32,000 nucleotides of DNA from Megasphaera elsdenii DSM 20460 (GCF_003010495.1 NZ_CP027570.1:2310001-2342000), one strand, 5' to 3'. Counted from the first letter of the stretch, positions 2,655-20,835 are shown. Numbers and translations: made by a program. The notes: generated by a model from the sequence alone, not told the origin.

Positions 2655-2680
2655 AACGATGAACCCCCTTGCACCCCCCT
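2655..2680. repeat. 26-bp exact direct repeat copy 1 (aacgatgaacccccttgcacccccct); left island edge
   Basis: Identical to 9493-9518. Flanks differ on both sides (2654 c vs 9492 t; 2681 a vs 9519 g). Contains one TGCACCCCC motif (2670-2678). Confidence 0.85.
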
Positions 2681-2917
2681 ATTATATAATTACCAGTTTT
2701 CAAACCTTCGCCGCATATTCAAAGCACATATTTCCTGCATTTCTTCCTCGGAAAAATCCGATGACAGATTTTATCGATTTTGTTGCATGATTTGACAATG
2801 ACATCCCCTCCTCGCAATATATTTATTTTGTACCTATCATGGCAAAGTGTCACGCCGTTTGCTTCAGCAACATCAAAAAGCTCCTTTGCCATGCGGCAGT
2901 CATTTGGCTCTGCCCTC

Positions 2918-3955
2918 TTACTCCTTCGGTGCGTGTTTTGCCCACGCTTGGCCTTCACTGTCGGCATTTTTGGTGTTTTGCGCCATAACGCCCACCAGCG
3001 GATGAGGAACATATAGTTCTTCCAGATAGTTCCTGTCCTCGTCCGTCAGCGTCAAATCCACCGCCTTGACTGCCCCTTCCACATGATGAAGCTTGGTTGC
3101 CCCGGCTACGGGAGCATCTACCTTTGTCAGCAGCCATGCCAAGGCAATCTCGGTCATGGTGATCCGGTATTTGTCCGCAAGTTCTGCCACTCGCACAATG
3201 ATTTTCTGGTCAGCCTCCGCCATACCGTCATATTTCAGATGCGCCATACTGTCCTCTTGAAGCCTCTTGGTGATTTCGCCGGGTTTGCGGGAAAGCCTGC
3301 CGCTGGCTAAGGCGCTATACGGCGTCATGGCAATATTATCCTCTTCGCAAAGTTCTGCCATCTCCCGCTCTTCCTCACGGAAAAGCAGATTGTAATGGTT
3401 CTGCACAGAAATGAACTTGGCAAAACCTTCCTTTTCGGCGAGCGCATTCGCCTTGGCGAGCTGCCATGCGTAGCAGTTGGCGATGCCCACAAAACGCGCC
3501 TTGCCCGCTTTGACCATGCGGTTCAGTCCATCCATGACCTCATAGATTGGAGTCTTATAGTCCCACATATGGCAAATATACAGATCCACATAATCCATGC
3601 CCAAATGCTTCAAGCTCATGTCAAGAGATTTTTCGATATGCTCCTGCCCCGTCACGCCGTCTGCGATTTCCTGCGGACTGCGGGGCAGGAATTTTGTCGC
3701 CACTGCCACGTCCTCGCGTCTCGCGAAATCGCGCAAAGCCCGCCCCACATATTCCTCGCTCGTGCCGTTCTGGTAAACGATGGCGGTATCAAAGAAATTG
3801 ATGCCCAGCTCCAGTGCATGTTTGATGATGCTACGGCTCGTTTCTTCGTCCACCGTCCAACTGTGCTGCCCCGTCTTGGCATCGCCAAAGCCCATGCAGC
3901 CCAGGCAAATACGGGAGACGTGCAAATCCGAATTTCCCAGTTTCGTGTATTTCAT
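2918..3955 (-). CDS. aldo/keto reductase (Tas/YajO-like long form)
   Basis: 345-aa ORF: MKYTKLGNSDLHVSRICLGCMGFG, INFFDTA..Y..G.SEE, YVDLYICHMWD, GATKLHHVEGAV. Confidence 0.9.
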   Translation of the reverse strand: MKYTKLGNSDLHVSRICLGCMGFGDAKTGQHSWTVDEETSRSIIKHALELGINFFDTAIVYQNGTSEEYVGRALRDFARREDVAVATKFLPRSPQEIADGVTGQEHIEKSLDMSLKHLGMDYVDLYICHMWDYKTPIYEVMDGLNRMVKAGKARFVGIANCYAWQLAKANALAEKEGFAKFISVQNHYNLLFREEEREMAELCEEDNIAMTPYSALASGRLSRKPGEITKRLQEDSMAHLKYDGMAEADQKIIVRVAELADKYRITMTEIALAWLLTKVDAPVAGATKLHHVEGAVKAVDLTLTDEDRNYLEELYVPHPLVGVMAQNTKNADSEGQAWAKHAPKE

Positions 3956-3988
3956 GAAAAACAGTCCTCTCCTATCAATGAGTATATC

Positions 3989-4684
3989 TTATCGCAGTTC
4001 TTTCCTCAATCCCTCAAGCCAAGCGTCGATGTCCGCTTGGGAAGTCAGCATATGGTCGCCGCCCTCCGAATCAAACTGTATTTCCATAGCTGCGGCAAAT
4101 TTTGCCCCGGCGCAGTATTCCTTGATGTCCGTGATTACATGCCCCGGCCAGCCGCCGTGTGTCATAAAGGGAATGACCGTCTTGCCCGTCCAGTCCTGCG
4201 ATTTCAGGAAAGTGTGCATGGGAGGCGCCATGGTAAACCACCAGGTCGGCGTTCCCACGGCGATGATGTCATAATCGGCGATATTCACCGCAAGGGGCTT
4301 GATTTCCGGCATAAAGCCGGCCTCCACCTCCCGCTTCCCTTGCTCGGTCACTTCGCTGTTCCAGCCGCCATAGGGCGGATAAGGATGGGTCGGCTCGATT
4401 TCTGCATAATCGGCATCAAGAACCGTTTGCAACTGTTTGGCGATTTTCCTGGTGTTGCCACGGGAAAAGGAATAGCAGACGACCAAAATCTTCTTATCCT
4501 TGCTCATAATTCTCTCCTCCTGCTTGCTCATCATTTTTTCCTCCGCTAATTTCGCGTCCTTCATGCCGTCCGTTTTCAACGAGGAATTTTGCGGCTCGGA
4601 ATCTGCCGTAAAAGCGATGCCGAAAACGGCCAACATAGTCAGCAAAAGTGCGGCAAAGACGAACCGATATGTATGAGGCTTCAT
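3989..4684 (-). CDS. flavodoxin-family protein with an N-terminal signal/anchor extension (alternative internal start at 4507)
   Basis: Core KILVVCYSFSRGNTRKIA...YDIIAVGTPTWWFTMAPPMHTFL...GKTVIPFMTHGG is flavodoxin-like. The long form starts MKPHTYRFVFAALLLTMLAVFGIAF with SD AAGGAGG 7 nt upstream. The internal ATG at 4505-4507 (MSKDKKILVV) has its own AGGAGGAG SD. Confidence 0.8.
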   Translation of the reverse strand: MKPHTYRFVFAALLLTMLAVFGIAFTADSEPQNSSLKTDGMKDAKLAEEKMMSKQEERIMSKDKKILVVCYSFSRGNTRKIAKQLQTVLDADYAEIEPTHPYPPYGGWNSEVTEQGKREVEAGFMPEIKPLAVNIADYDIIAVGTPTWWFTMAPPMHTFLKSQDWTGKTVIPFMTHGGWPGHVITDIKEYCAGAKFAAAMEIQFDSEGGDHMLTSQADIDAWLEGLRKELR

Positions 4685-4696
4685 CGTACTGCCTCC

Positions 4697-4816
4697 TTAT
4701 ACTTCAAATTTTTCAGGCTCTAACCGCTTGATACATTTGGCAGGATTGCCCACCACGACTTCATAGTTCCCCACATCTTCTCCTATCTTTCGCAAATCAA
4801 TCCGTACTTCGTCCAT
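4697..4816 (-). pseudogene. C-terminal stub of a hexapeptide-repeat sugar O-acetyltransferase
   Basis: 39-codon ORF MDEVRIDLRKIGEDVGNYEVVVGNPAKCIKRLEPEKFEV. The VVVGNPAK.I..L ending is typical of the last beta-helix turn and tail of maltose/galactoside acetyltransferases. The rest of the gene is absent. Confidence 0.45.
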
Positions 4817-4833
4817 TTTTTGTTCCTCTTCCT

Positions 4834-6471
4834 TTAGTACATATTGATATTTTGCCAGAAAGCGAAATGGTGGCGCTGCTTGTATTCCTTCATATCCACC
4901 ATCTGCGGCTTCCCTTGGCCAAGTTTCAAATAACGGGCATGGTCGCCGTCAAAACGCTTCCATATTCCCTGCTCGTCCACTTTGGACATGCCCGTCCAGA
5001 TTTTCGCCATCTGCTTGGCGACCTTCTGCTGCTTGGGCGTGAGTTCGGTGCCGATGTCTGAAGAACCGTGAAAGCCGGGGAAAAGATACGGCAGCTCGTA
5101 AGTATGCGCCGTTCCCTGCTCAAAATCGGTCGCAACATACTTGGGACACTGCGGATCGCTGAACTCGTAGTAATAGACTTTCAGCTTGCTGTCGAGCGAA
5201 TCGGCAATCCGATAAATCGGCGCAGCAAACCAGCTGTCCGTGATGACCTGTGCATACGCCTCGGCGGGACTGCCGTAAGCCTCTGCGGGATACTCGGCCA
5301 TCACCTTGTCCGCAAAGCCGGGGATAGCGTACTGTTTTTCCAATGTCTCGAGATTGGTGCGATAGGCGGCCTCGTCCATATTTTTCCCGGCAATGCTCTC
5401 CGTCAGGGCGGCAAAGAAAGAACCCTCGTTTTGCACATTGCCAATGCCCAGCCGTTCGCCGTTTACTTCGCCGTTCTTAAAGGCTTCAGCGATGCTTGAC
5501 GGCACATACTCACCGTCACGGGTGATAATGCCGTCCAATAAATAGTTGTTTTCCAAAGCCAAAATTTCTTCCGTGGAAAGGGAGCGCAACTCCTCGGCGG
5601 TAGCGTTTTCCAATCCTGCCGCTTTAGCCAGGCCGATGCCCTTTTCCTCGGCCTGTTCCCGCGAAATCGAATGGCCATTGGCATACATGACAGGACTGGA
5701 CATGGCGATGATGTTTTTGAACAAGCCTTTGGCCTTGGGACTGGCCATCAGGATTTGCGAGCTTTGCCCGCCGGAGGATTCGCCGGAAATCGTCACATTG
5801 TCGGGATCGCCGCCGAAGTTCTCGATATTTCTCTGCACCCATTCAAGCGCCGCAATCTGATCCATCACGCCGTAATTGACAGCGGCGTGACCTTCCGCAT
5901 CAAGGGCGGGATGGGCAAAATAGCCGAACGCCCCGAGCCGATAGTTTATCGTCACCACCACGGCGCGGCCTTCCTTGGCTAAAAGCGAGGGGTCATAATC
6001 GCTCCCCGCGCCGACCACCAAAGCCCCGCCATGAATCCAGACAAAGACGGGAAGTTTATCGGGGTCGCCGGGTTGCTTCTCCGGCACGGCCACATTGAGG
6101 TACAGGCAATCTTCTGAGCCGCCTGCCGTTGCGAACACGCCCAAGTAACCCGTCTGCGCCGCTTCGCTTTTGTATTCGGTGGCATCAAGCACCCCATGCC
6201 AGTTATCGACCTTCACCGGCGGCCGCCAACGCAGCTCACCGACCGGCGGCTTGGCGTAGGGAATCCCCCGCCAGTAGCGCACACCACCCTTGGCAAAGCC
6301 CCGCACTTGCCCGTTTTCGGTATTTGCCAATACGTTTTGGCTGACGGCCTGCGCCTCTGCTGCGTACACCATCGTTTGCTGATTGGGCAGCACCGCCGGA
6401 ATAATCAACCAAGCGGCAGCGGCTGCCACAGCCAAAGTTTTCTTTAAGCGGGAAGAAAATTTGCTGCTCAT
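4834..6471 (-). CDS. secreted carboxylesterase, type B family
   Basis: 545 aa. Signal-like N-terminus (KKTLAVAAAAAWLIIPAVL...AAEAQA). Also WRGIPYAKPPVGELRW, EDCLYLNV and the nucleophile elbow GESSGG. Its ATG overlaps the upstream stop (ATGA). Confidence 0.9.
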   Translation of the reverse strand: MSSKFSSRLKKTLAVAAAAAWLIIPAVLPNQQTMVYAAEAQAVSQNVLANTENGQVRGFAKGGVRYWRGIPYAKPPVGELRWRPPVKVDNWHGVLDATEYKSEAAQTGYLGVFATAGGSEDCLYLNVAVPEKQPGDPDKLPVFVWIHGGALVVGAGSDYDPSLLAKEGRAVVVTINYRLGAFGYFAHPALDAEGHAAVNYGVMDQIAALEWVQRNIENFGGDPDNVTISGESSGGQSSQILMASPKAKGLFKNIIAMSSPVMYANGHSISREQAEEKGIGLAKAAGLENATAEELRSLSTEEILALENNYLLDGIITRDGEYVPSSIAEAFKNGEVNGERLGIGNVQNEGSFFAALTESIAGKNMDEAAYRTNLETLEKQYAIPGFADKVMAEYPAEAYGSPAEAYAQVITDSWFAAPIYRIADSLDSKLKVYYYEFSDPQCPKYVATDFEQGTAHTYELPYLFPGFHGSSDIGTELTPKQQKVAKQMAKIWTGMSKVDEQGIWKRFDGDHARYLKLGQGKPQMVDMKEYKQRHHFAFWQNINMY

Positions 6472-6839
6472 TTTGCTGCTCCCTCCTCCACATAAGCCTT
6501 CTTCATGGAATTAAACGCCGCCCACACATTCGGCCAGCCGGCATAAAACGCCTGATGGGTCAAGATTTCCGCCATTTCCTCTTTGGTGACGCCGTTCTTC
6601 TTGGCTTCCTGCATCTGGTACTGACAGGCGAAGGTATCGCCCATACCCTTGGCTACCAAGGTTGCCACCGTCACCATCGAGCGGTCACGCAGGGAAAGTT
6701 TGTCGTTCCGCGACCAGACCTCGCCGAACAGGACATCATCGTTGAGCCGGGCAAATTCCGGCGCAATCTCGCCGAGCATATCGCGCCCCGCCGTCTGCAC
6801 TACCTTTACCGCTTTTCTCTCGTTATTGTTCTGCTCCAT
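6468..6839 (-). CDS. carboxymuconolactone decarboxylase (AhpD-like) family protein
   Basis: 123 aa; EVWSRNDKLSLRDRSMVTVATL...GVTKEEMAEILTHQAFYAGWP is the CMD-domain signature. Confidence 0.85.
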   Translation of the reverse strand: MEQNNNERKAVKVVQTAGRDMLGEIAPEFARLNDDVLFGEVWSRNDKLSLRDRSMVTVATLVAKGMGDTFACQYQMQEAKKNGVTKEEMAEILTHQAFYAGWPNVWAAFNSMKKAYVEEGAAK

Positions 6840-6920
6840 TTATGCCGCCTCCGTAAACATCAAATTCATCGATAAAATTCCTGCCGCCAGCAATGCAGCT
6901 GCAAGCTTATAGAAACGCAT
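6840..6920 (-). CDS. 26-aa signal-peptide-like mini-ORF abutting the CMD start (possible severed leader)
   Basis: MRFYKLAAALLAAGILSMNLMFTEAA, with GGAGG about 8 nt upstream of the ATG at 6918-6920. Its TAA (6840-6842) directly abuts the CMD ATG (TAAATG). Below the track length cutoff. Confidence 0.3.
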   Translation of the reverse strand: MRFYKLAAALLAAGILSMNLMFTEAA

Positions 6921-6997
6921 AGTCCTATCCTCCGTCATTTCAAGGCTTTATAAGCCGCTTCATCCACCGGCTCCAGCCACTCTTTGCCCCCTTCTTT

Positions 6998-7843
6998 TTA
7001 TCTTACCTTCAGTTGATTCAGCTTTTTGATAAGTTCCACGTCCGTCAAATCGGCAATGGCATCATTCCTGTCCAGCAGGTCAATCGCCGTGATTTCCTCT
7101 TTCGTCAGACGAAAATCGAATATGTCGAAATTCTCCTCTATGCGTTTCTTGCGTACGGATTTTGGAATCGTGACGATGCCGCGCTCCACATCCCAGCGCA
7201 GTATGACCTGCGCCGGAGTTTTCCCGTATTTTTTCCCGATGGAAATAAGAGTTTTATTTTCAAGGATTCCCTTGCCGCCATGCCCCAATGGGCTCCATGC
7301 CTCCATCTGGACATCGTATTCCCGCATGATTTTCTCGGCGGCTTTTTGCTGATAATAGGGATGGAACTCCACTTGGTTGACGGCCGGCGGCAGCTTATTG
7401 TTCATGATGAAATCCACCAGACGGTCGCTGCCGAAGTTGCACACGCCGATTGCCCGAATACGCCCTTCCTGATACAGTTCCGTCATGGCCCGCCATGAGC
7501 CGTAACAGTCTCCGCAAGGCTGATGAATAAGATAGAGGTCGAGATAGTCAAGCCCCAGTTTTTGCAAGGACGTTTCAAACCCCGCTTTGGCATTTTCATA
7601 GCCCGCATCCTGTATCCATAGCTTTGTCGTGACGAACAGTTCCTCGCGGGGAATGCCGCTTTCCTTGATGGCACGTCCAACGGCTTCTTCATTGAAATAA
7701 GCCGAGGAAGTGTCGAGCAGCCGATAGCCCGTTTCCAGCGCCTGAAGGACGCTCGTCTCGCATTCCTTTGGGTCGGTCATCATGTAAACACCAAATCCCA
7801 AGAGAGGCATCTTGATGCCATTGTTCAGCATGGTATATTCCAT
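6998..7843 (-). CDS. aldo/keto reductase (DkgA/YvgN-like)
   Basis: MEYTMLNNGIKMPLLGFGVY, LDTSSAYFNEE, VTTKLW, YLIHQP. I prefer the ATG at 7843 (AGGAGA 6 nt upstream) over the track start at 7894. Confidence 0.9.
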   Translation of the reverse strand: MEYTMLNNGIKMPLLGFGVYMMTDPKECETSVLQALETGYRLLDTSSAYFNEEAVGRAIKESGIPREELFVTTKLWIQDAGYENAKAGFETSLQKLGLDYLDLYLIHQPCGDCYGSWRAMTELYQEGRIRAIGVCNFGSDRLVDFIMNNKLPPAVNQVEFHPYYQQKAAEKIMREYDVQMEAWSPLGHGGKGILENKTLISIGKKYGKTPAQVILRWDVERGIVTIPKSVRKKRIEENFDIFDFRLTKEEITAIDLLDRNDAIADLTDVELIKKLNQLKVR

Positions 7844-7874
7844 ATACATTCTCCTCTGCAATCCACTCGAAAAT

Positions 7875-7910
7875 TTACGGCTTTTGGAAGGCATTTTCCG
7901 TAACGGCCGT
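7875..7910. promoter_or_regulatory. candidate LysR operator in the divergent AKR/lysR intergenic region
   Basis: Inverted repeat TTACGG-N17-CCGTAA (7875-7903) with a nested GGAA..TTCC, followed by the 8-bp perfect palindrome ACGGCCGT (7903-7910). A plausible lysR promoter is TTGCAA (7949-7954), 17-nt spacer, TATCAT (7972-7977). Confidence 0.3.
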
Positions 7911-8013
7911 GTCCCTCCGTCTGTAAATTCATTTTATGGCAAATCTCCTTGCAACGGAAGTCGCTTTTTGCTATCATGGCATTAACCAAAAGGTTCATAC
8001 AGGAGGCTTTGCG

Positions 8014-8922
8014 ATGTACAACAAACACTTGGACGCATTTCTGATGGCGGCCGATTGCGGCAGCTTCACGAAGGCGGCGAAAAAACTCTTCATCACCCCC
8101 AATGCGCTCATCAAGCAGATCAATCTCTTGGAGGGCAGATTAGAATTGACGCTGTTTCGGCGGACGAACCACGGCATTGTGCTTACAGAGGCCGGCAAGA
8201 GCATTTATCGGGATGCCCGCCGCATCATCCATATATCCGAGCAGGCTCTGGTTACTGCCAAGGCACTCACGACAGGCAAGCAGAACATTATCCGGCTGGG
8301 CAGTTCTATGATGAATCCCTGCCGCCCCATCATGGAGCTATGGGTGGCTGTAAGCAGTCGTTATCCTCATATCAAACTTTCCATCGTCCCCATTGATGAC
8401 GGAAAAAGTGACAAACAGGATTCTTTCGCTGAAAAAACGGGAAGCGTCGACATCATTGCCGGACTCTTCCCGTCCACATTATGGAAAAATAAAGTCAATG
8501 CCCTCAAAATACGCCAGCTTCCCTTGGCGGTGGCCGTCCCCATCAATCATCCGCTGGCAAGCTGCAAAAGGCTGATGCTGACCGACCTCTACAGCGAGAC
8601 GCTCCTCATGGTGGAGCGGGGCGACACAATTTATATCGACCGCTTGCGCGATGAGCTTGAAACCGCGCACCCGCAAATCCATATCCACGATGTACCTTCC
8701 TATGACATCAGCATCTTCAACTATGCAGCCACCACGGGGCATCCCATGATTACCGCCGATATTTGGTCGGAAATCCACCCTTCCCTCGTGACGCTCCCTT
8801 GCGACTGGGGAGGCGATTACTCCGTCCCATACGGCCTGCTCTATGCCAAAGAGCCTGCGCCGCACGTCAGGGAGTTTGTGGAGATTATGACAAGTTTGAT
8901 AAAAGAACAAACAACATTTTGA
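8014..8922 (+). CDS. LysR-family transcriptional regulator
   Basis: MYNKHLDAFLMAADCGSFTKAAKKLFITPNALIKQINLLE is the LysR HTH. ATG at 8014 with AGGAGG 7 nt upstream (track start 7936 is further upstream). Divergent from the AKR-CMD-esterase-flavodoxin-AKR operon. Confidence 0.9.
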   Translation: MYNKHLDAFLMAADCGSFTKAAKKLFITPNALIKQINLLEGRLELTLFRRTNHGIVLTEAGKSIYRDARRIIHISEQALVTAKALTTGKQNIIRLGSSMMNPCRPIMELWVAVSSRYPHIKLSIVPIDDGKSDKQDSFAEKTGSVDIIAGLFPSTLWKNKVNALKIRQLPLAVAVPINHPLASCKRLMLTDLYSETLLMVERGDTIYIDRLRDELETAHPQIHIHDVPSYDISIFNYAATTGHPMITADIWSEIHPSLVTLPCDWGGDYSVPYGLLYAKEPAPHVREFVEIMTSLIKEQTTF

Positions 8923-8925
8923 TTT

Positions 8926-9447
8926 TACAGCCGTCTCTCCGTTCCATCCCGAAACACCACCGTCATTCCACCATCCACACCCACCGTCACACAATCCCCA
9001 TCGCCCCCCAGAGCGGCTCATCGAACTCCGCCACAGGCCCCTCCTGCGCCTCAAGTGTCCTGATGAACCCCGCTCCCTAAAGGGACTAGCTTCGCGTCGC
9101 AACCGCTCGCCCTTGGCTGACCGCTGGGCGATGGTCTCCGTCACCTCGTCGAATCGTGTCTTAGCTTTCTCGTACCAGCCCTCTGGCAGTCAGCTCCCTG
9201 GCAATGGAGCGGAAGGTATACCCGTCCAGGAACAAACGGTAAATCAGTTTCACCGTCCTGGCCTGTTCCTTGTTGACGGCCAGATTCCCATCCGGCCCTT
9301 TGTCATAGCCCAGAAAATGCCTGTAGGGAACACACACCTTGCCGTCAGCGAACCGCTTCCGATGACCCCAGGTCACGTTTTCCGAAATGCTCCGGCTTTC
9401 TTCCTGTGCCAGGCTGCTCATGATGATGAGGAGGAGTTCCCCTTTAC
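8926..9447 (-). pseudogene. large serine recombinase remnant A (5'-truncated, internally deleted, frameshifted)
   Basis: 9161-9445 encodes GKGELLLIIMSSLAQEESRSISENVTWGHRKRF...YTFRSIARELTARG (end of the resolvase domain and start of the recombinase domain). This is joined out of frame near 9174-9180 to YEKAKTRFDEVTETIAQRSAKGER... and ...MTVVFRDGTERRL* (stop 8926-8928). There is no catalytic N-terminus and no zinc ribbon. Confidence 0.8.
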
Positions 9448-10555: not shown

Positions 10556-10571
10556 TTTATCTCCCCTCGCT

Positions 10572-14302: not shown

Positions 14303-14728
14303 TTACATTTCCACGGATTTCGGCGTACCAAGCCCATGAGCGAGCTTGCAGGTGCATTCGTCCATATACATCAGGACAAGCGTGGGGCTATCGACGGTCT
14401 TATGGATTTTATGGACAATCTCATCGAGCCTGTCCCAAATGCGGCGACGCTCCTCTTTGTCCTCAGCGGCGACAAATTTCATCACGCCCGTGATGCGTAC
14501 CGTGAACTTGCCGGAGGGCTCCATGTAGGTGTAGGCCGTCTGGGGATGGTTGACGAGCTGCCGATAGACTTCCTTGTTGCTGGCCGTGGCGAAGTAAAAT
14601 TTCCCGTCCTCCTCGAACTGGAACTCGATGCACCGCGCTTCCGGCATTCCGTCCTCCCGCACGGTTGACATGATACCGTAGGCATCCACCGGCAAATACT
14701 TCATGAATTCTTCTTTGTTCATAGCCAA
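14303..14728 (-). CDS. pyridoxamine 5'-phosphate oxidase-like FMN-binding protein
   Basis: 141 aa; ..GIMSTVREDGMPEARCIEFQFEEDGKFYFATASNKEVYRQL is the split-barrel PNPOx-like pattern. AAGGAGG lies 8 nt upstream. Confidence 0.8.
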   Translation of the reverse strand: MAMNKEEFMKYLPVDAYGIMSTVREDGMPEARCIEFQFEEDGKFYFATASNKEVYRQLVNHPQTAYTYMEPSGKFTVRITGVMKFVAAEDKEERRRIWDRLDEIVHKIHKTVDSPTLVLMYMDECTCKLAHGLGTPKSVEM

Positions 14729-14769
14729 ATCCTCCTTGTAGTATGTATATACAGATGAAACATATAAAA

Positions 14770-15234
14770 TTACGCATGATCCAATTTGTCCGCCGCTTGG
14801 CTCATGGCCGCAGAAAGCTGGCGATATTCTGCTTCACCGATGGCGGCGACTGCCCTGTCTCTCAGCTGATGCAAACTCTCGTCGATGCCTTCTGTTTTCT
14901 CTTTGCCAAGTTCCGTCAGGCTGACATGAACGGTTTTCCATTCCTGCTCCTTTTGCAGTATGCCTTGCCCTACGAGAGCATTGACAAAGCGGGTGCAGGT
15001 GGACGGCGCAATATCCAGCTTCTCGCTGAGTTCGGAAATCGTGATGCCCGGATATTGGTTCACCACAATCAGCACATAAACATAGGGAGCGGCAATACCG
15101 GTCGTGGCATACACTTCATTTACAATACGCCGAAGCACATTCGCCAGCCGATTGGCAGTAAAGAACAGGCATTTTCTCAAGATAGTCTCGTCTGCTTTCA
15201 CCTTGCCGTCCTCCTCTCTCATTTGCATATACAT
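14770..15234 (-). CDS. MarR-family transcriptional regulator (start uncertain: 15228 leaderless or GTG 15201)
   Basis: Winged-helix core ..YVLIVVNQYPGITISELSEKLDIAPSTCTRFVNALVGQGILQKE. First gene of an 8-gene same-strand operon. Confidence 0.85.
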   Translation of the reverse strand: MYMQMREEDGKVKADETILRKCLFFTANRLANVLRRIVNEVYATTGIAAPYVYVLIVVNQYPGITISELSEKLDIAPSTCTRFVNALVGQGILQKEQEWKTVHVSLTELGKEKTEGIDESLHQLRDRAVAAIGEAEYRQLSAAMSQAADKLDHA

Positions 15235-15263
15235 ATAATAGCACTACCCCATACTGCTGTCAA
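15235..15263 (-). promoter_or_regulatory. sigma70-type promoter of the MarR operon
   Basis: Minus strand: TTGACA (15263-15258), 17-nt spacer, TATTAT (15240-15235). The -10 directly abuts the first ATG of the track ORF. Confidence 0.55.
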
Positions 15264-15273
15264 TACCCTTCAG

Positions 15274-15305
15274 AAAAAATTTGGCAGGACAAAAAAAGCC
15301 CCGCC
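15274..15305 (-). terminator. possible terminator downstream of recombinase remnant B
   Basis: Minus strand: GGCGGGGC-TTTTTTT-GTCCTGCC (8 pairs including two G.U) followed by AAATTTTTT. Confidence 0.35.
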
Positions 15306-15337
15306 AAGCATCATTCAAGATATTGGATTCATATTTG

Positions 15338-15745
15338 TCATTTATGTATCGTCATCCCATCGCGGAACACCACGGGCATACCGCCATCTGCGTCCACCGT
15401 TACATAATCCACCATGCTGCCCCACAGCTACTCGTCGAAATCCCAGAGCGGTGCGGTCTGCCCCTCAAACGTCTTGATGAAACCAGCCAGACGCTCTGCC
15501 TTGACCGACCGCGCGGCGATGGCCTCCGTCACCTCGTCAAACCACTGCTTGGCGGTATCGTACCGCACCACCAGTCCGTTGTAGCGTTTCTGGTACTCCG
15601 CTTGGTTCTGTGCGATGCGGGCGTTCTCGGCGACGCACTCCTCCAACATCTTCACCACCACGGCAAGCTCCTCGGCGAGAGCCGACTTCTCCCACCCTAG
15701 TTTCCCGATGGTGCAGAGCATCGCTTGGATGGTTTTCGGCGTTGC
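15338..15745 (-). pseudogene. large serine recombinase remnant B (5'-truncated, in-frame TAG)
   Basis: ..LCTIGKLGWEKSALAEELAVVVKMLEECVAENARIAQNQAEYQKRYNGLVVRYDTAKQWFDEVTEAIAARSVKAERLAGFIKTFEGQTAPLWDFDE-TAG-LWGSMVDYVTVDADGGMPVVFRDGMTIHK* (stop 15338-15340). Collinear with remnant C. Confidence 0.7.
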
Positions 15746-15858: not shown

Positions 15859-16562
15859 TCACACCCTCGTCCCATCCCGGAACACCACGGACAGCCCGCC
15901 GTCCGCCCTCACCGTCACGCACTCCACCATGCTCCCCCACAGCCGCTCGTCGAACTCGGTAAGCGGTTCGCCCTGCCCTTCGAGCGTCTTGGCGAACCCC
16001 GCCAGCCGCTCTGCCTTGGCTGACCGCTCGGCGATTGTTTCCATCACCTCGTCGAACCGCCGCTTGGCGGCATCGTACCTTGCCACCAACCTGTTGTAGC
16101 GTTTTTGATACTCCGCTTGATTTTGAGCGATGCGGGCGTTCTCGGCGACGCACTCCTCGACCATCTTCACCACCACGGCAAGTTCCTCGGCGAGTGCAGA
16201 CTTTTCCTGCTCAAGTTCTTCCGTGGCGCAGAGCGTCTTTTGCACGAGCCGGGCATTGGCGATGACCTCCTCGCGCTCCGTCACCAGTTTGTTGAATGCC
16301 GTGACGAAGGCCGCCTTGACCTCGTCCTCCGTCACATGAGGCGTTTGGCATTTATGCCCGTCGTACTTGTTGTTGCAACGGTAGATGACCCTGCGGTACT
16401 TGTCTGTGCTGTGCCAGACCTTCGCCCCAAAATAGCTGCCGCATTCGGCGCATTTTATCTTGCCGGAGAAAATGCTCACGCCGCTGTATCTGCCTCCCTC
16501 CCGCTTGCGCCGCGCTGCCTCCGACTGCACCATCTCAAAGGTAGCAGGGTCGATGATGGCGG
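15859..16562 (-). pseudogene. large serine recombinase remnant C (5'-truncated; zinc ribbon, coiled coil and C-terminal domain intact)
   Basis: PAIIDPATFEMVQ..., zinc ribbon GKIKCAECGSYFG..YRCNNKYDGHKCQTPH, a coiled coil, and the ending LWGSMVECVTVRADGGLSVVFRDGTRV*. The first ~14 codons of the track ORF are read-through into repeat R'. No resolvase catalytic domain. Confidence 0.8.
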
Positions 16563-16677
16563 GAACCCCCCACCGCCTATCGTTAAGCAAGTCTTCCTCG
16601 GAAGCCGCGCAGGACAAGGCTTCGACAAAAAGAGAGGGGGTGCATTTGCACCCCCTCGGTGGGGATTTTGCTCCCCC
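16563..16677. repeat. junction repeat R' (second copy of R; the core part is shortened)
   Basis: 16575-16677 aligns with 9519-9622. 16563-16574 (gaaccccccacc) looks like a collapsed version of gaacccccttgcacccccct. Motifs: inverted at 16636, direct at 16647, degenerate at 16669. Confidence 0.8.
16627..16655 (-). terminator. intrinsic terminator (R' copy) downstream of the TetR-module operon
   Basis: Same GGGGGTGC-AAAT-GCACCCCC hairpin, followed by TCTCTTTTT on the minus strand. Confidence 0.65.
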
Positions 16678-16695
16678 TAAATTGGATAAGTTCTG

Positions 16696-16850
16696 TCACT
16701 TTTCCATTTGTTCCATTAGCCAATACGGATTCTTCAAAATCTCTCTGCCAACCCCAATCAAGTCCGCAGCATTATTTTTTAGGAGAGTTTCTGCATCTTC
16801 TAAGGTCTTAACTCCCCCCGTCAGCATGACGGGAATGAGTTCGAAAATGG
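16696..16850 (-). pseudogene. 3' remnant of a second OYE-type flavin oxidoreductase
   Basis: Minus-strand frame gives ELIPVMLTGGVKTLEDAETLLKNNAADLIGVGREILKNPYWLMEQMEK* (stop 16696-16698). This parallels the C-terminus of the intact OYE (LPIILTGGVKTKEDAESLLQAGKADMIGVARAVIGNPDW). It overlaps the tail of the MBL ORF in another frame. Confidence 0.55.
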
Positions 16851-17477
16851 CGCATACCACGAGCGTTCCCGTTCTGCCCCCACCGTAGTCGGTTCCGTAT
16901 GTCCGGACAGCAAGACGGTTTCCTGCGGCAGTTTCAGTATACGCTGTGTGATACTCTGCATCAATGTTTGCTCATCCCCGCCGGGAAAATGTGTCAGCCC
17001 GAAACTGTTCTTGAAAATGGAATCACCCACGAAGGCCACATTGTCCTTGGCGCTATAATAGAATACGCTGTCCGTAGTATGACCGGGAACGTAGTGCATG
17101 GTCAAAGAAAATACAGGATTCCTTTCGAGGGCAATCCTACTCCCGTCCGGCAAATAGCTCACATCATCCAGTTTGATATATAGCCCGCAACCTTCCGAGA
17201 GATTCCAACGAGGATTCTCTGTATATTCCCGCCCTCTCTCGTGCATACAGATAGGGATGGACAGTGCACCCTGGATTTGCGCTGCGGCACCCATGTGGTC
17301 GAAATGTCCATGGGTGAGCAGAATTTTTTCGATGACGAATCCTCTTTGTCGAATAACGGCTAAAAGAGTATCTGCTTCTGCACCGGGGTCGAGCAAAAAG
17401 CCGTGTCCTGTGGCATCATCAATATAAAAGTAGGTATTGGTGTTAAAAACGCCTGCCACGGGCAACGATAAAATCAT
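16821..17477 (-). CDS. MBL-fold hydrolase, glyoxalase II / YcbL-like
   Basis: 218 aa; ILLTHGHFDHMGAA (HxHxDH) and YVPGHTTDS. The last ~12 residues (WYAPFSNSFPSC) are read from the OYE remnant and are probably not native. Confidence 0.85.
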   Translation of the reverse strand: MILSLPVAGVFNTNTYFYIDDATGHGFLLDPGAEADTLLAVIRQRGFVIEKILLTHGHFDHMGAAAQIQGALSIPICMHERGREYTENPRWNLSEGCGLYIKLDDVSYLPDGSRIALERNPVFSLTMHYVPGHTTDSVFYYSAKDNVAFVGDSIFKNSFGLTHFPGGDEQTLMQSITQRILKLPQETVLLSGHTEPTTVGAERERSWYAPFSNSFPSC

Positions 17478-17491
17478 GATGCTCCCCCGCC

Positions 17492-18187
17492 TTACTGCAC
17501 AATATGGCAGCCATCCGCCCCGCAGACCATGCCATCTAATGATGTTGCCGCTGACGTTTCCTCAGCCAGTATCTTTTCGATGGCTTTTTTCAGCATGGCC
17601 GTCGGTTGTGCACCTGATGCCGTGTACTTGCCGTTGATAAGGAAATAGGGTACGCCGTGAATGCCGTGCTCCATTGCTTCCTGCTCATCGGCGCGTACCT
17701 CATCGGCGTATCGGTCGCCGGACAACACTGCAGTCACTTCGTCCTTGTCCAAGCCACATTCGCCTGCGATTTGTGTCAGCACATCATGGTCGCTGAGTTT
17801 CAGATTCTTGGTGAAGTAAGCATCAAATAACTTCGTGATAATTCCTGTTTTCCCTTTTTCCTGGGCATATTTCGTGAGACGCAGGGAGTCAAAGGTGTTG
17901 GTGTAACGTGTAGAGACGTAGCGAAAGTCGATTCCCTCACTCCTGCCCATGCGGGAGATGGCTTCAATACGCTCTGCTGCCTCCTCTTTGCTCAGATGAT
18001 ACTTCGCGGCAAAACGATCCACCGTAGAGGAAACGACCTCCCGGCTGGCATAAGGGTCAAGTTCAAAGCTCTTGAATTCGATTTCCACTTTATCTCCGCC
18101 GTCAATTTCCGCCAAGGCCTTTTCCAGCCGCTTCTCACCGATATAGCAGAAGGGACAGGCGTAGTCCGACCATAATTCGATTTTCAT
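17492..18187 (-). CDS. DsbA-family thiol oxidoreductase (FrnE-like)
   Basis: MKIELWSDYACPFCYIGEKRL (CPFC active site) ...HGIHGVPYFLINGKY. ATG at 18187 has TAAGGAGG upstream. The track start at 18313 adds 42 implausible residues that run through the promoter. Confidence 0.85.
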   Translation of the reverse strand: MKIELWSDYACPFCYIGEKRLEKALAEIDGGDKVEIEFKSFELDPYASREVVSSTVDRFAAKYHLSKEEAAERIEAISRMGRSEGIDFRYVSTRYTNTFDSLRLTKYAQEKGKTGIITKLFDAYFTKNLKLSDHDVLTQIAGECGLDKDEVTAVLSGDRYADEVRADEQEAMEHGIHGVPYFLINGKYTASGAQPTAMLKKAIEKILAEETSAATSLDGMVCGADGCHIVQ

Positions 18188-18227
18188 TTTCCGTGCCTCC
18201 TTAGCAATATATAGAACTTGTTCGATA

Positions 18228-18261
18228 TTGACATTATACACAGGGCAGTATATAATGTCAA
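18228..18261. promoter_or_regulatory. palindromic dual consensus promoter / probable TetR operator
   Basis: ttgacattatacacagggcagtatataatgtcaa. Plus strand: TTGACA (18228-33), 17 nt, TATAAT (18251-56). Minus strand: TTGACA (18261-56), 17 nt, TATAAT (18238-33). The outer 12 nt form a near-perfect inverted repeat. Confidence 0.6.
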
Positions 18262-18304
18262 TAGAAATAGAGCGCGTTCTAAAAATAATTTTGAAGAAGG
18301 TAAG

Positions 18305-18520
18305 CGACGTCAACTACTCCCGACTAAAGTCGGGAGCTTGTAAGTCGGAACTACATAGGTACTAACGGCATCAAAAGACGTCTCCCTATATCCGCCTACA
18401 TCATCGGGTGGCTGACAACACCCGCTTTGCTAAGGAGTTTACTCCGAAGCAGTTGTTATTCTTTCGTAACGAGGATGGTTATCTCCGGAAATCCACATAG
18501 TTCCGAGGAGCTGAATATTC
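18305..18520 (-). ncRNA. predicted omega/right-end RNA of the TnpB element (extent approximate)
   Basis: By analogy with characterised TnpB systems, the guide RNA scaffold overlaps the tnpB 3' end and the right end. The region has several hairpins: ggagt-aa-actcc across the stop codon, cgggtg..cacccg, and the right-end hairpin at 18317-18336. Confidence 0.4.
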
Positions 18521-19665
18521 ATGGCACCAATACGGTCATCGTTGGATTTGTAACCGCACTGACAGCTATATAAGTGCCTGTGATGGTCACGGTTTTCCTT
18601 GTGGATAGTACCGCATTTGGGACAACGTTGAGAGGTATACTTAGCAGATACCTTCAGAACTTCGGAACGATTTTCATGAGCTTTATAAGTCAGGAATTGC
18701 TCCAACTGATAGAATGCCCAGCTGCGCAGGTCGTAATTTTGTTTAGCAGTTTTTGAAAGATTGGACTCTTCGAAGCTAACACCGGTCAGATCTTCAAGCA
18801 CAAATAGCGTATCTTTGCCGTATTTTTCAACGAGTGTCTTAGAAATCCGATGGTTTACATCAGACATCCAACGGTTCTCTCGTCCTGAAATGGCTTTGAG
18901 TCTACGCTTTGCTGATTTTGTACCCTTAGACTGGAGCTGGCGGCGGACTTCCTGAAATTTATGGCGTTTAGTAGCCATCTTCTTACCAGAGACGAATTCG
19001 GTTTTGCCCTGTTCGTCGTAACTAACAGTAAGAAAACGTAATCCGCGGTCAATACCGACAACGTGACGGACGTTTTCTTTCTGAAAATCTTCGACAGCTT
19101 GGGTTACGGGAATATGGAGATACCATAAACCTTTGAGTTCGACCAGTTTTCCTGTTCCAAGGTCATAGGAACCATCGAGGTATTCAGCGAAATGTTCACC
19201 CTCAAAAGTGCATTTGGTTCTTTTTCCGAGTGTATTGATAGACAGAACCTGTCCGCTATCAACGAAGCTATAATCACGATTGCGAACCAAGTCCGCTTGT
19301 GGGCGGCTGAAGAATACTGGCTTCCAGAGCCATTCCAAAGTTTTGGTAATGCGTTGCCAGTTGCCATTCTTATCCTTATATCTGTAGGGATTTTGGAAGA
19401 GCTGTTGTTTTACCGTTTTATATCTGGCAATCGTCGTCTTGATAGAAGACTGGGCCAGCTGCGATTTCAGACCGAACTGGCTGCGCAGGTCACTGTACAG
19501 CTCTCTGTTGAGACTTTGGTAGGTCATGTTAAATCGGTGGTCGAAGATGTACTGCGACACGAAGTTACAAGCCTGACGGTATTGTTCAGTCATCTGACGG
19601 AACAGCGTCTCTTGTTCGGGAGTAACATGTATACGAAGTTTTATTGTTTTAGTTAGGTTAGACAT
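18439..19665 (-). CDS. tnpB: TnpB (IS605 OrfB-type RNA-guided endonuclease family)
   Basis: 408 aa. RuvC-like motifs VVGIDRG, FVLEDL and SNDDRIGAMNI. Zinc finger CPKCG...CQCG. All three catalytic acidic positions appear intact. Confidence 0.9.
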   Translation of the reverse strand: MSNLTKTIKLRIHVTPEQETLFRQMTEQYRQACNFVSQYIFDHRFNMTYQSLNRELYSDLRSQFGLKSQLAQSSIKTTIARYKTVKQQLFQNPYRYKDKNGNWQRITKTLEWLWKPVFFSRPQADLVRNRDYSFVDSGQVLSINTLGKRTKCTFEGEHFAEYLDGSYDLGTGKLVELKGLWYLHIPVTQAVEDFQKENVRHVVGIDRGLRFLTVSYDEQGKTEFVSGKKMATKRHKFQEVRRQLQSKGTKSAKRRLKAISGRENRWMSDVNHRISKTLVEKYGKDTLFVLEDLTGVSFEESNLSKTAKQNYDLRSWAFYQLEQFLTYKAHENRSEVLKVSAKYTSQRCPKCGTIHKENRDHHRHLYSCQCGYKSNDDRIGAMNIQLLGTMWISGDNHPRYERITTASE

Positions 19666-19809
19666 TTTTTCACCTGCCTTTCTAAAATTTATACTACTTC
19701 ATTAAAATTATTATATCATAATTTTTTTGCTAAAAGTCTATTATTGATTATTGAAAGGAGGGGAGGTGCGGCTCCTCTCATGACTAAAGTCACGAGTCTC
19801 CGCCGCACC

Positions 19810-20409
19810 ATGAAGATGAAAAAATGTGGTCGTCCTCCTAAAAAGGACAATCCCGAAGAAAATAAGGAAAAAATCATAGCTGCGGCCATAGCCCTTATCG
19901 AGGAACAAGGCGCGGACTGTATCACGGTGCGACGTGTCTGCGAGAAAGCGGATATTGCCACGGGAACATTTTATTATCACTTCCGTAATAAGGATGACCT
20001 GATGATGCACTTTGTGCGAGGGATCTCCTTCGAGACAGTCGAGCTTACGGCTCCACCCTCCGATATTGCAGGACGCATAGCAGAATTATATATGCTCCTT
20101 ATCCGGCAGTACATGAACCTTGGCATAGCTTTTATGCGTAGTTTTTACACGCCGGACAATCAGGCACTCCACACCTATATGGGAGAAAAAGACGGGAAGT
20201 TTGCCGCTGGAACGGTCATGGCCAGATGCGAGCAGGAGTTTGTCAAGGCACAGGCAGAAGGCTGCATACAAAAAAATGCAGATATCCACCAAATGAGCGC
20301 GGATATCTGCACGATTGTAAAGGGCTGTATCTTCGAGTGGTGTCTCAGCGAGGGGAAAATGGATATAGAAGCGGCGGTTCAACGAATGCTAAAAGCATAT
20401 ATGGCATAG
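19810..20409 (+). CDS. TetR/AcrR-family transcriptional regulator
   Basis: MKMKKCGRPPKKDNPEENKEKIIAAAIALIEEQGADCITVRRVCEKADIATGTFYYHFRNKDDL is the TetR HTH. Upstream in-frame codons from 19744 fall inside the IS left-end hairpin. There is no good SD before 19810. Confidence 0.8.
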   Translation: MKMKKCGRPPKKDNPEENKEKIIAAAIALIEEQGADCITVRRVCEKADIATGTFYYHFRNKDDLMMHFVRGISFETVELTAPPSDIAGRIAELYMLLIRQYMNLGIAFMRSFYTPDNQALHTYMGEKDGKFAAGTVMARCEQEFVKAQAEGCIQKNADIHQMSADICTIVKGCIFEWCLSEGKMDIEAAVQRMLKAYMA

Positions 20410-20439
20410 AAACCGATTGACATTGATATCATTCCTCAA

Positions 20440-20820
20440 CCTCCGTGTCCCATCCCGGAACACCACCGTCATGCCACCATCCACGCCCACCGTCACATAA
20501 TCCACCATCGCGCCCCACAGCCGCTCGTCGAACTCCGCCACAGGCTCCCCTTGCGCCTCAAGCGTCCTGATGAACCCCGCTCCCTAAAGGGACTAGCTTC
20601 GCGTCGCAACCGCTCGCCCTTGGCTGACCGCTCTGCGATAGCCTCCGTCACCTCGTCGAACCGTGCCTTGGCTTTCTCGTACCGCTCCACCAAGCCGTTG
20701 TAGCGTTTCTGGTACTCCCCTTGGTCTTGGACAATCCTTGCATTCTCGGCGCTGCAGTTCTGGGTCATCTCCACTAGCACCGCAAGCTCCTGCCCCCAGG
20801 AGGCTTTCTTTTGTTTTGCA
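20440..20820 (-). pseudogene. large serine recombinase remnant D (5'-truncated, frameshifted by the same 29-nt replacement as A)
   Basis: ..ELAVLVEMTQNCSAENARIVQDQGEYQKRYNGLVERYEKAKARFDEVTEAIAERSAKGER, then the 29-nt segment at 20581-20609, then (shifted frame) GFIRTLEAQGEPVAEFDERLWGAMVDYVTVGVDGGMTVVFRDGT. Confidence 0.75.
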
Positions 20821-20835
20821 TACAATAATTATACC

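Follow-up and report, generated by a model that had tools for sequence, protein, structure and literature searches.

The window analysed here is a stretch of 32,000 nucleotides from Megasphaera elsdenii DSM 20460 (NZ_CP027570.1:2310001-2342000). It contains three modules in which LysR, MarR and TetR regulators stand with oxidoreductases and hydrolases, in the order and with the Pfam content given by the initial annotation of this sequence. In addition, four minus-strand fragments of large serine recombinase (LSR) genes, termed remnants A to D, and four right-hand element ends (R0, a 26-bp remnant, R and R') were found. The features are as follows, genes within the modules being assigned by Pfam.

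1406-1926, minus strand: LysR-type gene fragment (substrate-binding domain; weak PF03466 match), joined to R0
1927-2084, minus strand: R0, right-end arm of the Megasphaera/Veillonella-type element E0
2085-2654: leftover between R0 and the truncated R; plus-strand ORF at 2031-2471
2655-2680, minus strand: right-end R remnant of the LysR unit, an exact 26-mer found again at 9493-9518
2681-8940: cargo 1, LysR module
2918-3955, minus strand: AKR
3989-4684, minus strand: flavodoxin-like
4834-6471, minus strand: carboxylesterase
6468-6839, minus strand: CMD/AhpD-like
6998-7894, minus strand: second AKR
7936-8922, plus strand: LysR regulator, with a protein identical to that of M. elsdenii DSM 20460
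8941-9439, minus strand: remnant A, whole
8941-9176, minus strand: remnant A, 3' piece (LSR residues about 454-524, D-like type)
9177-9439, minus strand: remnant A, 5' piece (helix E and start of the recombinase domain, residues about 141-232)
9438-9622, minus strand: R, complete right end of the MarR unit
9623-15353, minus strand: cargo 2, MarR operon
9662-10579, minus strand: tautomerase-SnoaL
10572-11615, minus strand: OYE flavin reductase
11596-11955, minus strand: cupin
11975-12685, minus strand: second nitroreductase
12725-13684, minus strand: MBL-fold
13674-14273, minus strand: nitroreductase
14303-14728, minus strand: PNPOx-like
14770-15234, minus strand: MarR
15354-15721, minus strand: remnant B (LSR residues about 393-525; in-frame stop)
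15859-16565, minus strand: remnant C (LSR residues about 292-525; open frame; PF13408 match)
16566-16677, minus strand: R', right end of the TetR unit, 91-92% identical to R
16678-20446: cargo 3, TetR module
16821-17477, minus strand: MBL-fold hydrolase
17492-18187, minus strand: DsbA-like
18310-19815, minus strand: TnpB-only IS200/IS605-type insertion sequence (tnpB 18439-19665)
19816-20409, plus strand: TetR
20447-20835, minus strand: remnant D (LSR residues about 410-526; 26-nt insertion at 20581-20606)
20901-21138, minus strand: MarR-type pseudogene fragment in the flank, with 84% identity to its intact counterpart at 22386-22847

Going by its Pfam content, the cargo would have a role in detoxification. 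The insertion sequence breaks into the divergent promoter region of the TetR module, and its assignment to IS200/IS605 is based on TnpB domains (PF07282, PF01385 and PF12323) and on presence/absence polymorphism: the insertion is precise in comparison with the loci L011 and L002, and it is missing from three related loci (L011, L012 and L002). No TnpA was found in this element. The initial annotation had reported no transposase, which has to be amended for 18310-19815, and was right that there is no intI and no attC; moreover, no tyrosine recombinase was detected among the window ORFs scanned. Rfam and tRNA scans of the window returned nothing, indicating that R is no known RNA and that no tRNA served as a target.

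The four LSR fragments are homologous at the nucleotide level, with pairwise identities of 71-91% (B-C, 81% over 372 nt; A-D, 91% over 237 nt; B-D, 72%; C-D, 71%), as the initial annotation had proposed to check. Its further observations also hold: a common C-terminal block is present in all four, their similarity stops right after ...GTGTTCCGNGATGGGA (VVFRDG), and the resolvase catalytic domain is gone. In tblastn searches LSR residues 1-140 were matched by no window fragment, and the catalytic-serine region was found in none of the four. Intact relatives carry YARVSTD and PF00239. The domains PF07508 and PF13408 and the coiled-coil region are present in the window only piecemeal, as the start of PF07508 in remnant A and PF13408 in remnant C, which comprises the zinc ribbon, the coiled coil and the C-terminus. 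The description of the remnants as four 3' fragments was correct in number and position, but remnant A also keeps helix E. Its 5' piece covers the first third of the recombinase domain (PF07508 match), begins with its first codon exactly at the G-E boundary, and is of the E0-type LSR2, sharing 93-95% identity with intact LSR2 genes from M. elsdenii MSK.21.52 (L061) and Megasphaera L072. Remnant A is a chimera with frameshifts, in which an internal deletion fused this piece to a 3' piece of a different LSR type, itself frameshifted and with a 26-nt insertion at 9074-9099. Remnant D heads the array, its 5' side cut by a deletion. All LSR copies in the window are dead, and by their sequence they are pieces of LSR genes with no functional member among them.

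The complete right end, R, has a terminator-like hairpin (9580-9602) followed by a T run, and repeated GGGGGTGCA and CATCGTTA motifs; its arm reads TTGTATCA-N8-GGTAAAGGG, with the crossover GA at 9439-9438. The junction of R with remnant A at 9438/9439 is a precise site-specific junction, the only such junction left in the window, and its codon has been reused in dozens of independent events. R', which like R lies where the initial annotation had placed it, is without the terminal approximately 75 nt, a deletion having fused it to remnant C; in the metagenomic contig L016 the TetR-unit cargo has a complete R behind it, which in turn is joined to helix E. The 26-bp repeat, previously regarded as the core of R, is indeed an exact 26-mer but proved to be an internally deleted copy of R, with the deletion lying between GGGGGTGCA repeats and the copy cut at ...TTCATCGTT. 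The related metagenomic contigs L014 and L016 retain about 140 bp of R where the window has 26 bp, and they have 95 bp more in the leftover region 2085-2654.

Within the supposed decayed host gene lies a fifth element end, R0, joined to the LysR-type fragment, and the array thus extends past the start coordinate given previously. Over about 160 nt R0 is nearly identical to the right end behind the intact LSR2 in L072, where an R0-like right end is joined to methyltransferase motif I. The R0 junction in the window, CACCTTTGA-GA-GCTTGGATGCTGATATTGG, is similar to the P' arm of elements of this type; the LysR-type fragment probably represents a secondary target site. No methyltransferase junction was found in the window, R joining an LSR gene and R0 the LysR-type fragment, nor was an adjacent LSR gene pair at an element end; at this locus neither a left end (P' arm) nor an LSR 5' fragment was detected. 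The junctions other than that of R with A (R'-C, C-B, the internal one of A, the truncated R at 2655 and the 5' end of D) are deletions, and therefore the order of events at this locus is a reconstruction.

Comparison with relatives established R as a bona fide element end. In L001 the MarR unit ends with ...GGTAAAGGG-GA, joined to DPFTGTGTF of a Type ISP enzyme gene, and the left end is an inverted repeat; this 6.1-kb composite has both ends and no recombinase and lies precisely within the methyltransferase motif. In L005 the MarR-unit end is joined to DPACGTFGF of hsdM. Intact relatives show the order LSR1-LSR2-cargo-...GGCAACA-GA followed by motif I (11 genome loci and about 17 of 28 IMG/VR contigs), and the LSR1 and LSR2 pair is present at nearly all of 80 genome loci as well as in L022 and L188. 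The relatives reside in gut and rumen bacteria of the Negativicutes and Clostridia, and some of the parent elements are prophage-like. Another candidate, L151, was considered as a complete small methyltransferase insertion and not used, its left flank being another gene.

According to our analysis, the ends fall into two classes with different targets: those with ...GGCAACA-GA are joined to motif I (DPxCGxG) of N6-methyltransferase genes, and those of the window's class, ...GGTAAAGGG-GA, mainly to the K-G-E codons with which helix E begins in the LSR genes of other elements. A metagenome scan, whose pattern was the window's own R end, yielded 79 occurrences; 56 of these, a proportion valid for that end subtype only, lie at the E codon of GE(L/I)LxxI..S(L)AQEE, split between G and E, while 7 are joined to a P' arm (attP-like) and 2 to motif I. 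The 56 helix-E junctions occupy exactly one nucleotide position in at least 14 different LSR DNA versions and with several R variants; the identity of R is uncoupled from that of the LSR, which points to many independent events. The reciprocal junctions were recovered as well, in the form of at least nine protein clusters that end ...ENIWTLDSKG-(D/E) and then read through into the P' arm. One 111-kb contig carries a complete nested insertion: the halves of an LSR2 lie about 89.5 kb apart, split at the helix-E codon, and rejoin into a seamless 524-aa LSR. The inner element of about 89 kb has its own LSR1-LSR2-cargo-R, and the outer element ends in methyltransferase motif I. Both P and P' arms (inverted TTGTATCA / TGATACAA motifs, 2-bp crossover) are present in L001, L038, L096, L113, L147, L154, L167, L172, L183, L185 and L187, and the crossover is GA at all junctions. 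The helix-E site has no evident sequence similarity to methyltransferase motif I; its resemblance to the P' and motif-I arms in dyad symmetry and sequence (TCATnnCC...TGA) is weak and unquantified, and we draw no claim from it.

Strains of M. elsdenii and related metagenomic contigs differ in their sets of modules, a polymorphism that the initial annotation had suggested looking for. The LysR module alone is present in L015, LysR with MarR in L014, LysR with TetR in L016 and all three in L011 and L012, whereas in L013 a further module, with a 215-bp direct repeat on its flanks, separates LysR from MarR. The MarR module was found at 99-99.9% identity in unrelated genomic contexts (L001-L010); no PLSDB plasmid matched this unit in a megablast search. 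Mosaicism is seen in the LSR tails, whose switch points vary in position: the tail of L005 is C-like and then B-like, in L003 and L014 a D-type tail is followed by MarR cargo, and L015 has a D/A mosaic. A second site-specific boundary at ...GATGG-GA after VVFRDG, suggested by L014, was rejected, since other loci switch LSR type at varied positions and homologous recombination explains the apparent boundary. A separate module, P0082, with sharp ends in four contexts, was likewise discarded; it is bounded by IS3-family copies and not by att sites.

Based on these results, the 19-kb island is likely to be the decayed right side of at least five nested related integrative elements, a "Russian doll" formed by insertion into recombinase genes. 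The initial annotation had already pointed to serial nesting or accretion with destroyed recombinases, and this is supported by the R ends, the junction of R with A, the reciprocal junctions, the nested contig and the module polymorphism. The parents are temperate-phage or ICE/IME-like elements whose right end comprises a SHOCT gene, tandem LSR1 and LSR2, a variable cargo of 1-5 kb and the arm R, with the cargo placed between the stop codon of the last LSR and R. The insertions would be catalysed by the LSRs, cutting at the GA dinucleotide; one end class would enter the motif I (D-P-x-C-G-x-G) codons of N6-adenine methyltransferase genes, and the window's class mainly the K-G-E codons that open helix E in a resident element's LSR gene. 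Each insertion would split and kill the resident recombinase. The new LSR, new cargo and R would then be joined through GA to what is left of the resident, namely its LSR from helix E onward, its cargo and its R, and repeated insertion would produce stacked units. Element bodies and the 5' parts of the recombinase genes would later have been lost by deletion, and the LSR tails and R copies, being repeated, would have allowed homologous recombination to shuffle and delete units. What remains are three regulator-linked operons with a putative redox/detoxification role, without left ends or a working recombinase, which can now presumably be moved or lost by homologous recombination only.

We lean, by a small measure, towards the further idea that an element lineage has evolved to use the helix-E codons (K-G-E) of the integrase genes of others as its normal attachment site. 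If so, each arrival would disable and trap the resident, seize the locus and stack the resident's cargo behind its own, resulting in an integron-like, self-extending cargo array through element-against-element warfare. The leftover truncated integrases might additionally act as dominant-negative or immunity factors.

Several other explanations were weighed against nesting in recombinase genes. Exchange of modules by homologous recombination only, with the LSR tails and R as portable homology arms and no site-specific insertion here, agrees with the mosaic tails of L005, L003, L014 and L015, with the 215-bp repeats around the additional module of L013 and with the lack of a recombinase or left end in the window, and some strain differences, such as the D/A mosaic of L015, fit it equally well. 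It nevertheless leaves unexplained the precise joining of R to the G-E codon of a Megasphaera-type LSR2 and the MarR module within methyltransferase motif I elsewhere; it covers the present-day shuffling and not the origin of the array, and we consider it unlikely as a full account. A plain build-up of elements in tandem at one chromosomal attachment site, with random decay afterwards, would give the recombinase gene no special role as a target and make the junctions of R with helix E chance deletion end-points. Accretion of site-specific elements is well known from reviews, most window junctions are indeed random deletions, and the attP-like P-GA-P' junctions could come from tandem copies. 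This account is disfavored and seems quite improbable in view of 56 junctions at one nucleotide in at least 14 LSR sequences with several R variants, the use of the same codon by the reciprocal junctions, and the rejoining of a complete nested insertion into a seamless reading frame.

An integron-like platform would make the unit of N-terminally truncated LSR, cargo and R a functional cassette, with the dead LSR expressed from R (AAAGGGG ribosome-binding site) as a DNA-binding regulator or immunity factor. The best 120 homologues of remnant C all lack the catalytic serine, an open frame of about 380 codons is kept at 13 of 41 junctions, and the SD-like AAAGGGG in the R end lies a few nucleotides before in-frame ATG/TTG codons. 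Against this, the other 28 of the 41 truncated genes are broken by deletions or frameshifts, every copy in the window is dead, there is no intI or attC, and insertion into the gene fully explains the truncation; we know of no cassette-sized circles. We therefore regard such a platform as very doubtful. Two related ideas, a self-circularising unit of truncated LSR, cargo and R and an integrase gene spanning attP as in SSV1, were dropped on account of the lack of a catalytic domain in R, the reciprocal junctions and the nested contig. Finally, repeats of 70-92% identity can mislead short-read assemblers, and the initial annotation had raised an assembly chimera of repeated recombinase sequences. 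However, a complete M. elsdenii genome (CP027569.1, L011) and JHXC01 (L012) show the identical order, as do several independent metagenome assemblies, with a sequence identity of 98.9-99.6%, which leaves a chimera with hardly any credibility.

Nesting in recombinase genes accounts for islands of regulated redox/detoxification operons between dead recombinase tails, which were recovered from many gut and rumen metagenome contigs. It shows how gut bacteria can stack cargo and how cargo can spread between genomes, as with the MarR operon at 99-99.9% identity. Where an integrase gene is the target, related mobile elements are brought into direct conflict: with its excision gene inactivated by the newcomer, the resident would be grounded and its domestication favored. 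Split halves are also the probable origin of hundreds of entries annotated as "recombinase family protein", with lengths of 350-400 aa or about 150-250 aa. For engineering, methyltransferase motif I and LSR helix E offer two natural attB sites in highly conserved coding motifs.

The initial annotation recognised no described element type, yet the parents are recognisable as phage- or ICE-like elements with tandem serine integrases in methyltransferase genes. In Bacillota, ICEs and prophage-like elements that encode two or three large serine integrases in tandem enter hsdM, mutT or traG; their LSR genes lie side by side at one end, all facing the target gene, with the possibility of a few cargo genes in between, the methyltransferase gene is disrupted with a very short (2-bp) repeat left, and a gene of another ICE is the insertion site of one of these elements (Ambroset et al., 2016; PMC4701971). 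The intact relatives found here have the same layout; the window differs in holding dead right-hand ends only, and the hosts are Negativicutes and Clostridia of gut and rumen, with some prophage-like parents. The parent element type is already known; in the limited literature searched we found no description of the helix-E codons of a recombinase gene as an LSR target, or of arrays of truncated recombinase and cargo.

Tn4451 and Tn5397 (TnpX/TndX) are likewise excised and inserted by an LSR with a 2-bp crossover and a 2-bp target site. The crossover dinucleotide of TnpX/TndX is GA. Together with Tn6104-6106, which are nested in Tn6103 of C. difficile (PMC3158075), they also offer LSR elements within LSR elements and relaxed or multiple target choice. 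In contrast to Tn4451 and Tn5397, the elements described here have two LSR genes instead of one and target two defined coding motifs instead of loosely similar sites; DUF4368, which marks the multi-targeting TndX clade, was not detected in their LSRs (E<=0.001). ICE/IME accretion and CIMEs share tandem or nested site-specific insertion, the subsequent loss of recombination and transfer genes, and decayed units movable in trans, as exemplified by the 6.1-kb composite of L001. That composite is a CIME by definition (both attachment sites kept, recombination genes lost), and the window is not: its units have lost their left ends and hence, unlike CIMEs, are not even cis-mobilisable. Furthermore, nesting takes place here in a recombinase gene and not at a regenerated att site. 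The resemblance to integrons, an ordered array of independently acquired variable units, each with a conserved recombination end, is superficial: the island has no tyrosine integrase, no attI or attC and no common promoter, its units are multigene operons with their own regulators, its repeats are LSR att arms, and the array grows by whole elements entering the recombinase gene of the previous element.

The initial annotation described four fragments of one serine-recombinase family, none with a resolvase catalytic domain, and both points are confirmed, with the fragments mapped here on an intact 527-aa relative:

8941–9439, minus strand, remnant A (residues 141–232 and 454–524 of the relative)
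15354–15721, minus strand, remnant B (residues 393–525)
15859–16565, minus strand, remnant C (residues 292–525)
20447–20835, minus strand, remnant D (residues ~410–526)

The remnants are homologous at the DNA level (A–D, 91%; B–C, 81%; remaining pairs, 64–72%), and all four cease to match directly after the VVFRDG codons. The catalytic serine region is absent from all four; remnant A still has helix E with the beginning of the recombinase domain (PF07508), and the zinc ribbon (PF13408) is retained in remnant C. CP027569.1 and JHXC01 match the region at 98.9–99.6% identity, and the LysR protein encoded at 7936–8922 is identical to that of M. elsdenii DSM 20460. An identical, partly palindromic 26-nt insertion, CGACGCGAAGCTAGTCCCTTTAGGGA, is found at 9074–9099 in remnant A and at 20581–20606 in remnant D, as well as within the recombinase tails of the comparison loci L006 and L015; each interrupted tail is thereby frameshifted.

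The remnants are accompanied by copies of a repeat, R:

9438–9622, R
16566–16677, R'
2655–2680, 26-bp remnant of R

Copies of the MarR operon that encode an identical MarR protein are found in widely differing genomic surroundings. One is L001, where a Type ISP restriction enzyme gene is interrupted by a 6.1-kb composite that includes the operon; the right junction is ...GGTAAAGGG-GA|CCCATTCACAGGCACAGGC (DPFTGTGTF), and the left junction, CTT-GA|AATAAGCCTTTCCGTATTGATAAAAAA..., repeats the R end in inverted orientation. The presence of both element ends and the precise insertion suggest that the composite probably moved in trans. In L005, the DPACGTFGF codons of hsdM are joined to the same R end. 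In both L001 (8922–15058) and L005 (9170–9330), the recombinase tail of the MarR unit is fused to ~150 bp of a foreign methyltransferase gene (SACGTSGFLVAASDYL...), left over from an earlier target and carried along with the unit.

Scanning one genome per species with a large serine recombinase (LSR) alignment yielded 80 loci with full-length genes, almost all of which had a second LSR gene just upstream. At these loci, a conserved end, ...CATCGTTA...CGTTATGTTGTATCAAATTAGACACGGCAACA-GA, lies 1–5 kb downstream of the last LSR, and at 11 of them this end abuts motif I (D-P-x-C-G-x-G) of a gene for an N6-adenine methyltransferase. Among IMG/VR viral contigs, 28 carry this type of end, which adjoins motif I in ~17 and a left arm in 2. 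Judging from these shared ends and motif-I junctions, R is the right-hand attachment arm of phage- or ICE-like elements. Cargo fills the interval from the last LSR's stop codon to the R arm, which explains why the similarity among the four remnants stops at the stop codon. The first part of R, a GC-rich hairpin with a T run after it, resembles the terminator of the cargo operon; one GGGGGTGCA-AA-TGCACCCCC pair with a T run has a terminator-like appearance. Upstream of the terminal arm, R (9438–9622) contains four GGGGGTGCA and three CATCGTTA copies at regular spacing, an arrangement repeated in L025 (14170–14352) and L183 (7810–7990). These repeats could be accessory binding sites, perhaps for the second recombinase.

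Besides motif I, a second target is indicated by the junctions of R with recombinase genes. In the window, the R end ...GGTAAAGGG-GA is followed directly by ACTCCTCCTCATCATCATGAGCAGC, the E of the K-G-E codons, and then by LLLIIMSSLAQEE, the start of helix E. The identical precise junction was found in L002, L003, L011–L014, L016 and L025–L029, with differing R variants and LSR sequences. None of the 120 best homologues of remnant C contains the catalytic serine, and in ~10 clusters unrelated sequence extends up to exactly G-E. Scanning of metagenomes with the pattern TTGTATCA-N8-GGTAAAGGGGA gave 79 occurrences. The GA was followed by a helix-E codon of an LSR gene in 56 of the 79 (at least 14 DNA versions, some LSR1-like), by a left arm P' (...A(A/T)TGATACAA) in an attP-like configuration in seven, by methyltransferase motif I in two, by an internally deleted LSR in two, and by other or unknown sequence in 12. 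The identities of R and of the downstream LSR are uncoupled (in some pairs R is 95–100% identical and the LSR 52–64%, and the reverse is also seen), which indicates many independent events at one nucleotide. The downstream frame is broken in 28 of the 41 distinct junctions with enough sequence, and the truncated LSR genes are thus mostly in decay. We infer that LSRs catalyse these insertions. Public protein sets also hold very many "recombinase family" entries of either 350–400 aa (without the catalytic domain) or ~150–250 aa (catalytic domain only), and the two size classes resemble the halves that a split at K-G-E would leave of a recombinase gene.

If whole elements insert at the helix-E codon, N-terminal LSR halves ending in ...K-G and followed by a left arm are expected. 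When residues 1–142 of the M. elsdenii-type LSR2, the second of the tandem LSR genes, served as the query, only short proteins (126–247 aa) were returned, many of them cut by contig ends. In at least nine clusters, ...ENIWTLDSKG-(D/E) is followed by a translated P' arm (e.g., DVLPSEMIQ or DGGYSIMIQ, where MIQ/LIQ corresponds to TGATACAA). One N-terminal half (P0185) and one C-terminal half (P0115) share a single 111-kb contig, with the junctions ...GGATTCCAAGGG-GA-TGGTGGATACTCGATAATGATACAA and, ~89.5 kb away, ...GTTGTATCAATTTGGAGCAAACAGGG-GA-ACTTCTCATTTCCATCATG. Put back together, the two halves give an uninterrupted 524-aa LSR in which Resolvase, Recombinase and zinc-ribbon domains are present, and the inserted DNA has its own SHOCT-LSR1-LSR2-cargo-R. 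The outer element ends with ...GGCAACA-GA-TCCGGCCTGCGGC in methyltransferase motif I, and phage genes flank both sides. This contig is direct evidence of nesting via a recombinase gene. Phage structural or packaging genes, or a viral-contig prediction, were noted in many parent elements (L187/L188, L021 and the IMG/VR loci L191–L218); in that case, cargo between the integrase and the attachment site would be prophage "moron" cargo.

The order of events in the window, read on the minus strand, is a reconstruction. Remnant D, the TetR cargo and R' would form the innermost surviving unit, which has lost its body and the 5' portion of D by deletion and borders on a MarR pseudogene. The tip of R' was presumably removed by a deletion extending into C; in L016, the TetR cargo is followed by a complete R joined to helix E. 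Remnant C would be the tail of another element, and B, the MarR cargo and R the next unit. The 5' piece of remnant A, joined precisely to R at helix E, matches intact LSR2 genes from M. elsdenii MSK.21.52, Megasphaera L072 and Veillonella at 93–95% identity and is assigned to a resident element, E0, with the following right end:

1927–2084, minus strand, R0, right-end arm of the Megasphaera/Veillonella element type

The LysR unit, consisting of a D-type tail, its cargo and a truncated R, sits between residue ~232 of the E0 LSR2 and R0 and is bordered on either side by a deletion junction. The layout of R joined to helix E of an E0-type LSR2, followed by R0, is repeated in the metagenome contigs L116, L135, L140 and L176. 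At its GA, R0 meets a LysR-type gene fragment (1406–1926) whose sequence is similar to the P' arm of the same element type, and this junction is probably a secondary site. The initial annotation, which placed the array start at 2655 next to a decayed host gene, can be kept only in part, since R0 is a fifth element end inside that supposed gene and the array thus reaches beyond this start. In total, at least five elements are represented by the units and ends, and no left arm survives in the window.

Comparison of the module sets among M. elsdenii strains and related metagenomic contigs revealed the varying numbers of modules proposed as a check: LysR only (L015), LysR and MarR (L014), LysR and TetR (L016), and all three without the insertion sequence (L011, L012). 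In L013, an additional LysR/AKR/flavodoxin module lies between the LysR and MarR units, with a 215-bp flanking repeat (R and 30 nt of helix E). The recombinase tails are mosaic, with switch points that vary in position; the tail of L015 is a D/A hybrid, which fits deletion by homologous recombination. The suggested serial nesting of related elements is borne out by the precise junctions, the reciprocal halves and the complete nested contig. The array was built by site-specific nesting; its units are now being reshuffled and lost through homologous recombination between repeats. A 5.9-kb segment (truncated LSR2 with GNAT/NUDIX cargo; the P0082 module) has the same sharp ends adjoining IS3-family copies in several contexts (L020, L023, L024), which suggests that such units spread by way of insertion sequences.

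The content of the three cargo blocks is as originally described: two aldo-keto reductases, a flavodoxin-like protein, a carboxylesterase and a CMD protein (LysR); a PNPOx-like protein, two nitroreductases, an MBL-fold protein, a cupin, an OYE reductase and a tautomerase-SnoaL fusion (MarR); and a DsbA-like protein with an MBL-fold hydrolase (TetR). Their presumed detoxification role is based on Pfam names only. The statement that the island has no transposase does not stand, as one element had been overlooked:

18310–19815, TnpB-only IS200/IS605-type element

It sits immediately upstream of the TetR start codon, within the divergent tetR/dsbA-like promoter region, and may alter regulation of the TetR module; its absence from L011, L012 and L002 indicates a recent insertion. 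The flank has been rearranged too, since two fragments adjoin the array head: a MarR-type pseudogene fragment (20901–21138; 84% identity to the intact gene at 22386–22847) and a 51-nt aldo-keto-reductase 3' fragment (21541–21591; 80% identity to 343–393).

Among known systems, TnpX/TndX are similar in their 2-bp crossover, the dinucleotide being GA there too, but DUF4368 was not detected in the LSRs of this analysis. The island is not an integron. Streptococcal ICEs carry serine-integrase triplets and integrate in hsdM, mutT or traG (PMC4701971), and the layout of the parent elements (tandem LSRs, cargo and a methyltransferase target) matches theirs. The parent elements are of a known kind, namely LSR-driven phages, ICEs or IMEs with tandem integrases and methyltransferase targets. 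In the literature searched, the coverage of which is incomplete, no description was found of helix-E codons of recombinase genes as an attachment site or of the resulting arrays. The junctions suggest that one LSR family uses two unlike sites, methyltransferase motif I and the helix-E codons of recombinase genes.
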